A DNA stretch of 16,115 nucleotides, from NCBI GenBank assembly GCA_028865725.1, contig JAGWJP010000009.1:1-16115 (forward strand), written 5' to 3'. Positions within the stretch are counted from its first letter, which is position 1. Each line of letters opens with the position of its first letter. Made by a program: the position numbers and the translations under genes. This DNA is from Patescibacteria group bacterium. Its GTDB lineage: Bacteria > Patescibacteriota > Minisyncoccia > UBA6257 > JACRHW01. The notes under the pieces are model-generated. The model did no database searches. It was not told the DNA's origin and saw only the letters and a program-made list of their open reading frames with translations. Shown piece after piece: positions 994 to 1,025 of this stretch.

Positions 994-1025
994 TCTAGGG
1001 ACGCCGGACGTTAAGTCTAGGGACA
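994..1025. promoter_or_regulatory. two copies of the 'tctagggac' motif, 13 nt apart, in the 5' leader of the vWA gene
   Basis: tctagggacgccggacgttaagtctagggaca. The same 10-mer (tctagggaca) recurs at 7819-7828 upstream of the small-TM/MVP genes. The extended GC-rich form (tagggacgccg) recurs, reverse-oriented, at 3307-3342. Confidence 0.35.

Follow-up and report, generated by a model that had tools for sequence, protein, structure and literature searches.

The closest published analogue of the element described here is the stoperator of Cluster A mycobacteriophages (L5 gp71-type), an asymmetric 13-mer that occurs in short intergenic spaces in one orientation (PMC9283540). Another group of repeated phage sequences, the start-associated sequences (SAS) and extended start-associated sequences (ESAS) of Cluster K mycobacteriophages, is of unknown function (PMC3203893). 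Here, we analyse a motif that recurs in a 16,115-nt stretch of metagenomic DNA (contig JAGWJP010000009.1 of assembly GCA_028865725.1; hereafter, the window), where it precedes the gene for a vWA protein and a gene pair that includes a major vault protein (MVP) homolog. The motif is most likely a new, lineage-private sequence of a well-known kind, namely, the control signals that phages repeat between their genes, and its mechanism would operate at either the DNA or the RNA level. Arrays of a similar anatomy are bound by ribbon-helix-helix (RHH) proteins, whose operators consist of 7–8-bp sub-sites placed head-to-tail or inverted, in 2 to >10 copies, both before regulated genes and in large arrays such as centromeres; examples include the 7-bp heptads of omega of pSM19035, the 8-bp boxes of ParG and the tandem 8-bp metboxes (AGACGTCT) of MetJ.

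Composition of the repeat family

The window corresponds, in reverse complement, to part of contig JAGWUQ010000009.1 (35,369 bp, assembly GCA_028868355.1) of an NCBI metagenome-assembled genome (MAG) labelled 'Patescibacteria group bacterium', from which it differs by 37 substitutions clustered in a few patches (99.77% identity). Results from beyond the window refer to a merged sequence of 34,129 bp of this source contig, joined from three loci, in which the window position equals 25,779 minus the merged position. All genes of the window are encoded on the minus strand, referred to below as the coding strand.

An initial annotation of the window had drawn attention to a recurring GC-rich motif, and every sequence that it listed is found in place. 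The exact form, TCTAGGGAC, is present on the plus strand at 994–1002, 1016–1024 and 7818–7826 and at no other place in the window, and reads GTCCCTAGA(C/T) on the minus strand. The first two copies belong to the leader of the vWA gene (TTTGTCCCTAGACTTAACGTCCGGCGTCCCTAGACCAATAAGGAATAATAATG on the coding strand), at −47..−38 and −25..−16 relative to the ATG at 977..975, whereas the third, reading ATATGTCCCTAGATTGCAGCTAAATCATG, is located at −22..−14 relative to the ATG (7804) of a 47-aa transmembrane (TM) ORF. The inverted copies reported within a gene are also present; they form a perfect 15-bp tandem in a 119-aa gene (3240..3599) and encode VPGVGTPGVGTP (PGVGTPGVGT). By contrast, there is no GC-rich 11–12-mer that recurs often, as had been stated, but a 9-mer occurring three times and a 12-mer common to one leader copy and the in-gene tandem. 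What the initial annotation had seen is the junction of two overlapping units: the unit is longer, and most of the family is located just outside the window (Table 1). On the coding strand, unit A (GACTTAACGTCC, 12 nt, asymmetric) overlaps unit B, the junction unit GTCCCTAGAC, and the two chain as (GACTTAACGTCCCTA)n with a 15-nt period.

Table 1. Repeat sites and adjoining genes of the source contig. Positions are those of the window, unless given as merged.
Feature	Position	Strand	Description
Site #1	993..1024 (merged 24755-24786)	-	vWA leader; GTCCCTAGAC-TTAACGTCC-GGC-GTCCCTAGAC, that is, unit B, unit A (1017..1006), 3-nt spacer, unit B; double-stranded form of the 32-mer: GTCCCTAGACTTAACGTCCGGCGTCCCTAGAC
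Distal unit B, vWA leader	1015..1024	-	GTCCCTAGAC; the 48-aa hydrophobic ORF 1017..1163 terminates at the TAG (1019..1017) of this copy
Proximal unit B, vWA leader	993..1002	-	Ends immediately next to the Shine-Dalgarno sequence AAGGA, 15 nt upstream of the vWA ATG
Site #2	merged 25870-25904	coding strand	GGGACACTGGACTTAACGTCCGGTGTCCCTATTC, between the vWA gene and the 159-aa gene
Site #3	merged 26600-26630	coding strand	Degenerate
Site #4	merged 27665-27770	coding strand	Six units in a 90-nt gap, 8- and 15-nt spacing, ahead of the 74-aa gene
Site #5	merged 29110-29123	coding strand	AACGTCCCTAAAAC, end of the 850-bp non-coding region
Site #6	7818..7827 (merged 17952-17961)	-	TGTCCCTAGA, lone unit B; ends 13 nt before the ATG (7804) of the TM ORF that precedes MVP
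Terminal array	contig end	inverted	AGGGACCCCGGACGTTA(GGACGTTA)x17; 8-mer core TAACGTCC inverted
In-gene tandem	3309..3342	+	CGGCGTCCCTACGCC-CGGCGTCCCTACGCC-CGGC; 2.3 copies of a 15-bp repeat, perfectly matched; orientation opposite to that of the leaders
10393 copy	10393..10403	+	GGCGTCCCTGC; inverted relative to the leaders
vWA gene	3..977	-	Truncated at the window edge; 351 aa as encoded in the contig; Pfam VWA E=1.5e-5; first gene of the motif-marked block
MVP homolog	5189..7657	-	822 aa, full-length; Pfam MVP_shoulder 1.1e-15, Vault_3 1.6e-7; downstream of site #6
Putative 47-aa TM ORF	7661..7804	-	Between site #6 and MVP; uncalled in the NCBI record; no obvious Shine-Dalgarno sequence

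Short-word statistics reveal little of this family. As many as 113 different 9-mers occur at least three times in the window, close to the ~102 expected, and in a third-order Markov ranking AGGGACGCC attains P=5e-5 among 14,164 words, a value that loses significance once corrected. No window word survives correction for the about 14,000 words of this ranking, and GTCCCTAGA is itself missing from the list because two of its copies are 22 nt apart. The argument from frequency put forward in the initial annotation thus fails in its statistical form, 9-mer counts in the window being ordinary, but its conclusion that the recurrence is not due to chance stands. When up to one mismatch is allowed, the 15-mer CGTCCGGCGTCCCTA has four copies in the 34-kb contig, compared with a mean of 0.0025 in 400 Markov simulations; these are located in the vWA leader, in the leader of the next gene (outside the window) and in the in-gene tandem, both copies of which match the 15-mer at 14/15 positions, and the contig end holds one more, with two mismatches. 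These match counts justify the grouping of the leader copies with those inside the gene. BLAST comparisons among intergenic regions showed that the vWA leader shares a 19-nt exact match with one gap, 3 kb apart (E=4e-6), and a 22-nt, 95% match with a third gap (E=1.5e-5). Finally, GACTTAACGTCC with up to two mismatches yields 14 matches in 22 kb versus 1.6 expected, a number reached in 0/100 shuffles. The repeat family is real and non-random.

Two of the window copies call for a separate judgement. The one at 7818–7827 plausibly belongs to the family, given its 10-nt match and its position. The related sequence upstream of gene 9686..10390 (gcagggacgcc; GCAGGGACGCC on the coding strand) does exist, overlapping the Shine-Dalgarno or ribosome-binding region of that gene, but its inclusion in the family was not borne out: with 0.069 copies expected per window, it is not individually significant and is probably a chance 9-mer match, which we left out of the family.

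A finer periodicity runs through every site, with GTC/GAC triplets recurring every 7–8 bp in direct and inverted order. The successive spacings are 7, 8, 7 and 7 bp in site #1, 7, 8 and 7 bp in site #2, 7, 8, 7, 8 and 7 bp in site #4 and uniformly 8 bp in the terminal array. The latter is located in a non-coding region just beyond two strong bidirectional hairpin terminators, one of which has a 20-bp stem (locus L003, 19430–19736), and all three assemblies that reach it, namely, the NCBI contig and two Logan contigs, break inside it, the latter ~35 nt in. The array may represent a genome terminus, serve in packaging or partition, or act as a decoy for the putative binder of the motif. Site #5, in turn, occupies the downstream end of an 850-bp non-coding region outside the window (locus L002, 20187–21035), which contains six tandem-repeat families (TAATCGTTA x5, twice; GCCTGCGGCGA x2.8; GTGACCA x5.4; a 15-mer x3.5; and a 22-mer x3.1) and looks like an origin or a regulatory hub.

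Position of the repeats relative to genes

The family shows a complete strand bias: GACTTAACG is found eight times on the coding strand and never on the other, and GTCCCTAGA five times versus none. All these copies are intergenic or overlap a stop codon, in a contig of which 16.6% is intergenic. Among gaps of at least 40 nt, the family is present in 5/6 of those between merged 24.6 and 29.2 kb, compared with 1/18 upstream, and hence marks one gene block. In four sites, the unit itself supplies the stop codon of the upstream gene (TAG of TAGAC or TAA of TTAAC). Within the window, this is the case for the 48-aa ORF, which is called as a gene in the Logan contig L004, and for the 115-aa gene 7819..8166, terminated by the TAG (7821..7819) of the third motif copy; both encoded proteins end in Ile-Cys-Pro (...ICP*). 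At the other end of the gaps, the last unit B (in site #2, the variant GTCCCTATTC) ends 13, 13, 15 and 16 nt upstream of the ATG, and the Shine-Dalgarno sequence occupies part of this interval.

The initial annotation had named a random distribution of the motif, or its absence beyond the window, as grounds for discarding the idea. In the rest of the contig, the motif occurs on the coding strand only, at intergenic or stop-codon positions and directly upstream of ribosome-binding sites; this recurrence close to start codons outside the window therefore supports a cis-acting expression signal. With respect to the suggested functions, namely, a promoter or operator, a site for the processing of RNA or the control of translation, or the footprint of a nuclease or recombinase, a cis-acting expression signal is retained, and the arrays and inverted copies fit a protein-binding site better than a promoter.

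Several other functions were considered and rejected. Site #2, which is outside the window, forms a hairpin with a 12-bp stem (−30.1 kcal/mol, z=−5.5) followed by a T-rich tail, TATTCTTTAT, and is the best candidate for a unidirectional terminator on the contig. The other 5/6 sites, including the window copies, fold no better than shuffled sequences (z from +1.1 to −1.5), and a family of intrinsic terminators or RNA hairpins is ruled out, site #2 alone being a hairpin. Avoidance of restriction sites was dismissed in view of GTCCC/GGGAC and CTAG counts near the Markov expectation. Likewise, programmed frameshifting or read-through at the TAG codon was set aside, given the lack of a slippery heptamer and the second in-frame stop codon that follows in site #4.

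Comparison with known repeat systems

Stoperators and the repeats described here are both short and asymmetric (13 and 12 nt, respectively), intergenic, uniformly oriented and private to a lineage, and the present repeats are found in multiple copies at 5–6 clustered loci in 34 kb. Furthermore, stoperators are often located at gene ends, a position comparable to that of the units which supply upstream stop codons. However, the stoperator consensus GGTGGMTGTCAAG is unrelated to the motif, no gp71-like repressor (HTH and stoperator domain) was found among the scanned proteins, and, whereas stoperators are single and scattered, the sites here form tandem arrays clustered in a 4.4-kb block. The motif is, by comparison, an analogue of the stoperators rather than a member of that group.

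The parallels with SAS/ESAS are of a different kind. In both cases, lineage-private asymmetric repeats occur in one orientation and are associated with the starts of some genes only; these genes belong to the non-structural part of the genome and have unusually large upstream gaps, and some copies are adjoined by an inverted-repeat extension. Nevertheless, SAS (GGGATAGGAGCCC) contains the Shine-Dalgarno sequence and is positioned a few nt from the start codon, whereas the unrelated motif described here ends 13–16 nt upstream and excludes the Shine-Dalgarno sequence; its units, unlike SAS, also build tandem arrays and have inverted copies elsewhere. It is, accordingly, not a start-associated sequence.

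The anatomy of the arrays is reminiscent of RHH operators, in which the same direct and inverted runs of 7–8-bp sub-sites are observed, and TAACGTCC is similar to the ACGTC core of the metbox. This likeness does not extend beyond anatomy: the leader sub-sites alternate between two sequences (GTCC[C/G] and GTCTAG), and no RHH protein was identified among the scanned proteins.

Distribution in other genomes

Searches elsewhere returned no relatives of the motif. There were no matches to the 32-mer or 19-mer in viral contigs, none to the composite pattern in genome contigs, and no instance of this family in 80 related MVP-encoding loci from IMG/VR (~1.5 Mb). Metagenome contigs yielded one match, in a 1.4-kb contig devoid of a second copy, which was read as coding (ORFs unchecked) and judged unrelated. 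The motif sequence is private to this genome, and close relatives of the genome were not recovered either: megablast returned nothing from phage records, the best non-self MVP match is 50% identical, and the neighbouring 225-aa and 82-aa proteins have no homologs. The four assemblies of this phage are 0.2–0.3% apart, with the differences confined to a few clustered patches, none of them in the motifs, and with site #1 invariant; so little divergence makes strain variation uninformative as a test of conservation.

Related MVP-encoding jumbo-phage contigs display the same habit with other sequences, reusing one exact short sequence in many gaps, in one orientation each. For instance, L034 carries the terminator hairpin CCCCTCGAAAGAGGGG with a T-run at five sites, L028 the sigma-70-like promoter TACTTGACTT...AAAATTA at four sites, and L080 the leader ACAATACAAAATTATTAAGGAG, which abuts the Shine-Dalgarno sequence at four sites downstream of a TGATATAAT promoter. 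Whereas these signals fall into clear classes (terminator, promoter and leader), the motif of this contig fits none of them cleanly and is absent from the relatives. Thus, the reuse of private intergenic signals appears to be general in the clade, the sequence itself being private.

A candidate operator array and its alternatives

Our tentative preference, held with less than even confidence, is that the motif represents an operator-type binding array for a phage-encoded DNA-binding regulator of one gene block. The element would be a lineage-private cis-regulatory repeat made of 7–8-bp sub-sites, each with a GTC or GAC (core CGTCC/TAACGTCC), which together form GACTTAACGTCC and GTCCCTAGAC. The arrays fill the short gaps of the block that extends from the vWA gene to a 204-aa gene, and a single copy precedes the TM-ORF/MVP pair; all keep to one orientation, beginning at or near the upstream stop codon and ending 13–16 nt before the next start. 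A sequence-specific DNA-binding protein of the phage would coat them cooperatively and control the transcription that enters or starts in each gap, either as an operator at which initiation is occluded or as a roadblock to elongation, so that the gene block would be switched as a unit. At the contig end, the large inverted (GGACGTTA)n array would be a further target of this protein.

Recognition of DNA by a protein is favoured because the units are arrayed in tandem, in runs of six and seventeen, because the 7–8-bp sub-sites are present in both orientations and because inverted copies occur in the gene and in the terminal array. Operator, iteron and centromere arrays behave in this manner, whereas promoters and sense-strand RNA signals do not. 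The inverted orientation of the in-gene copies and of the terminal array agrees with double-stranded DNA being recognised, and not with a promoter or a sense-strand RNA signal; it is from these features that we infer DNA-level recognition, the binding of a protein and its regulatory outcome. Sequence conservation is, moreover, not accompanied by RNA structure, 5/6 sites folding no better than shuffled sequences.

A number of observations weigh against an operator array. No binder of the motif was found, and no repressor-like family was detected when 20 proteins were compared with Pfam and 10 with PHROGs. The two 'Fis-type HTH' proteins proposed in the initial annotation as motif binders have no matches in either database, which leaves that assignment unsupported, and the eight neighbouring small proteins similarly lack Pfam or PHROGs matches. 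An 82-aa protein considered as an RHH-type binder received no support, having no homologs and no Pfam or PDB match and an unsupportive model: the single-sequence AF2 prediction consists of one long helix and a beta-hairpin (pLDDT 76), although dimeric folds are poorly modelled in this way. Furthermore, the tight distance of 13–16 nt to the ATG suggests a link to translation start which a DNA operator does not need, and a palindrome-tolerant DNA binder would not need the single orientation of all intergenic copies. The contig is generally prone to tandem duplication, so that the arrays themselves may be neutral. In addition, the best MVP identity being 50%, there are no close relatives in which the conservation of the sites could be followed, and the 34 kb examined come from a probably much larger genome.

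The proximity to start codons is better explained by an element acting in RNA, an alternative that we rank next and regard as possible, if rather unlikely. The units would then be situated in 5' leaders and be recognised, beside the Shine-Dalgarno sequence, by a phage RNA-binding protein or an RNA, thereby controlling translation or mRNA stability; the terminal array, transcribed from the minus strand as (UAACGUCC)n and closed by a strong terminator, would produce a decoy RNA that titrates the factor. Consistent with this scenario, all intergenic copies are sense-oriented, the last unit touches the Shine-Dalgarno sequence 13–16 nt before the ATG in 4/4 proximal copies, and the terminal array is 'sense' for the minus-strand arm of the bidirectional terminator (20-bp stem, with a T-run on both strands). 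The relative L080, in which a conserved leader motif abuts the Shine-Dalgarno sequence downstream of a TGATATAAT promoter, offers a parallel within the clade, and start-associated sequences are a documented precedent (PMC3203893). However, the copies within the gene are antisense, a conserved RNA fold is lacking, and site #2 buries the motif in its 12-bp hairpin. Rfam searches of the window, L003 and L006 produced no matches, and no tRNA or tmRNA genes were found. Moreover, both the promoter and the far end of the putative decoy RNA would be off the contig.

Strand-specific intergenic motifs upstream of genes are usually promoters, and a class-specific promoter, although unlikely, deserves consideration. 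In this case, T[A/G]GACT-N16-TA[G/T][A/T]C[T/C] would be read by the host RNA polymerase carrying the contig's own sigma factor, or else by another polymerase of the phage, to drive each gene of the block. This composite, with −35-like and −10-like hexamers 16 nt apart, is contained in sites #1, #2 and #4c, and TTGACT-N16-TAGACT, at the start of site #4, was listed by the promoter scan. Transcription of the gene that follows the strong hairpin of site #2 requires either read-through or a promoter within 63 nt, and relatives carry lineage-specific promoter-like motifs ahead of MVP. On the other hand, a −10 element at TAGAC(C/T) would place the transcript start 6–9 nt before the ATG, at or after the Shine-Dalgarno sequence, and neither six units at 15-nt spacing, nor a 17-copy 8-mer array, nor inverted copies within a gene are promoter-like. 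The motif is GC-rich where melting is needed, and sigma-70-type matches are not enriched (59 versus 58.4 in shuffles). A reading as an ECF-sigma promoter (AAC...CGT) was likewise rejected, the array spacer being 14 nt instead of 16–17 nt and site #1 lacking a properly placed CGT. A better promoter candidate is the AT-rich 23-mer ATTTTTGTCCTAATATATGTAGA.

This 23-mer is a second exact repeat, with three copies outside the window (locus L003, 15380–15402, 17545–17567 and 17677–17697), two of which start ~30 nt upstream of a start codon and precede the two aerolysin-like/response-regulator gene groups. Several relatives have a similar motif, TATAATATATATAGAAAA, in front of MVP and, by this likeness, the 23-mer is probably the promoter type of the clade. 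A weaker version, GATATAATAGAAGG, is located at window positions 7785–7798, 20 nt downstream of site #6 and inside the putative TM ORF.

The repeats could also be devoid of a regulatory role, having been spread by recombination, gene conversion or slippage, or left as the footprint of a site-specific nuclease or recombinase, and tolerated in gaps or in frame; we consider this quite unlikely. The contig is full of tandem duplications (18-, 15-, 9-, 11-, 7-, 22- and 8-bp arrays), four sites have a unit that starts at the stop codon of the upstream gene, and the in-frame tandem within the gene coincides exactly with the 5' boundary of a ~65-nt block in which two paralogs share ~90% identity, their upstream parts being unalignable; this coincidence suggests a recombination junction. 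Yet strict single orientation and a fixed distance to the start codon are unexpected for neutral insertions, the units have neither terminal inverted repeats nor target-site duplications, and no nuclease or recombinase gene is evident near them.

A more elaborate arrangement, which we regard as doubtful, combines regulator and decoy into a titration circuit. One sequence-specific factor would recognise the UAACGUCC/TAACGTCC units next to the ribosome-binding sites in a block of small genes, and the terminator-closed 8-mer locus, with at least 17 copies, would serve as a decoy, releasing this block at a defined time; the decoy may take the form of a DNA sink or of a CsrB/RsmZ-like sponge RNA. 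To our knowledge, a regulator-plus-decoy pair of this kind has not been described in a jumbo phage. Finally, the chance recurrence of a short GC-rich word, without any underlying family, is highly improbable: a threefold 9-mer is ordinary within the window and no word is significant after correction, but the 15-mer counts, the 19- and 22-nt matches and the GACTTAACGTCC counts refute it for the leader and in-gene copies, and it is plausible only for the copy at 10393–10403 and, less so, for that at 7818–7827.

The source contig and its genes

The gene content of the contig is phage-like, comprising the MVP homolog, the vWA protein, an RlaP-family nucleotidyltransferase, a dCMP deaminase, a dUTPase, ThyX, a helicase, a sigma factor (Pfam Sigma70_r2/r4; PHROG 351 at 7.6e-17) and many small orphans. 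Homologs of the MVP number 3787 at E<1e-20, many of them on contigs of 100–690 kb; 153 are on IMG/VR viral contigs, where they are common on contigs of 100–500 kb. Because of these phage-like genes and the occurrence of MVP homologs on large viral contigs, the contig is probably a fragment of a jumbo phage, and the 'Patescibacteria' label of the source MAG is probably a binning artefact. Neither an integrase nor any other sign of a temperate lifestyle was found on the contig. Of the 37 positions at which the window differs from the NCBI contig, 35 are confined to two short patches, at window positions 15611–15978 and 5228–5675, and more patches are seen in the Logan contigs; this pattern points to recombination between co-existing strains and not to uniform drift.

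Two families of paralogs are recognisable among the small genes. Three proteins (window 3240–3599 and 9409–9714; locus L003, 11528–12007) share the C-terminal signature CxC(K/E)(S/T)LLFGH(E/H)(F/L)GCP. Over their final ~65 nt, the 119-aa and 159-aa genes share ~90% identity, with the GC-rich tandem at the boundary of this block and the rest unalignable, which suggests a recent gene conversion. The second family (window 7819–8166, 1964–2341, 13242–13607 and 10423–10662) is characterised by CGTxGCA and a C-terminal VTPK(I/M)VAxKIR; one of its members matches Pfam DUF8296, and two are encoded just upstream of motif sites. Elsewhere in the window, an 18-bp tandem of ~19 copies (87% matches; 8590–8945) in the gene 8368..9072 (minus strand) encodes GDACVY/GNARVY hexapeptides of a 234-aa protein and dominates all k-mer counts of the window.

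Outside the window, the region at 15415–19306 of locus L003 contains two groups composed of an aerolysin-like pore-former followed immediately by an OmpR-like response regulator (233 and 235 aa in one group, 252 and 225 aa in the other), the second pore-former being preceded by a 62-aa TM protein. No histidine kinase is in view, and these genes are an unusual cargo for a phage. The Pfam Aerolysin match concerns the 233-aa protein alone, the assignment of the 252-aa protein as aerolysin-like being our own reading of its sequence.

Implications

The motif is useful for annotation rather than surprising, its sequence being new and the kind of element familiar. Private intergenic signals of this type provide a route to transcription units without culture, and the arrays offer a 32-nt bait for the isolation of a regulator. 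If the arrays are indeed regulator-binding sites, they would delineate a co-regulated block in an uncultured lineage of MVP-encoding jumbo phages, whose genes are almost all of unknown function; this block would consist of the vWA protein and a run of small orphans and, possibly, also include the TM-peptide/MVP pair.

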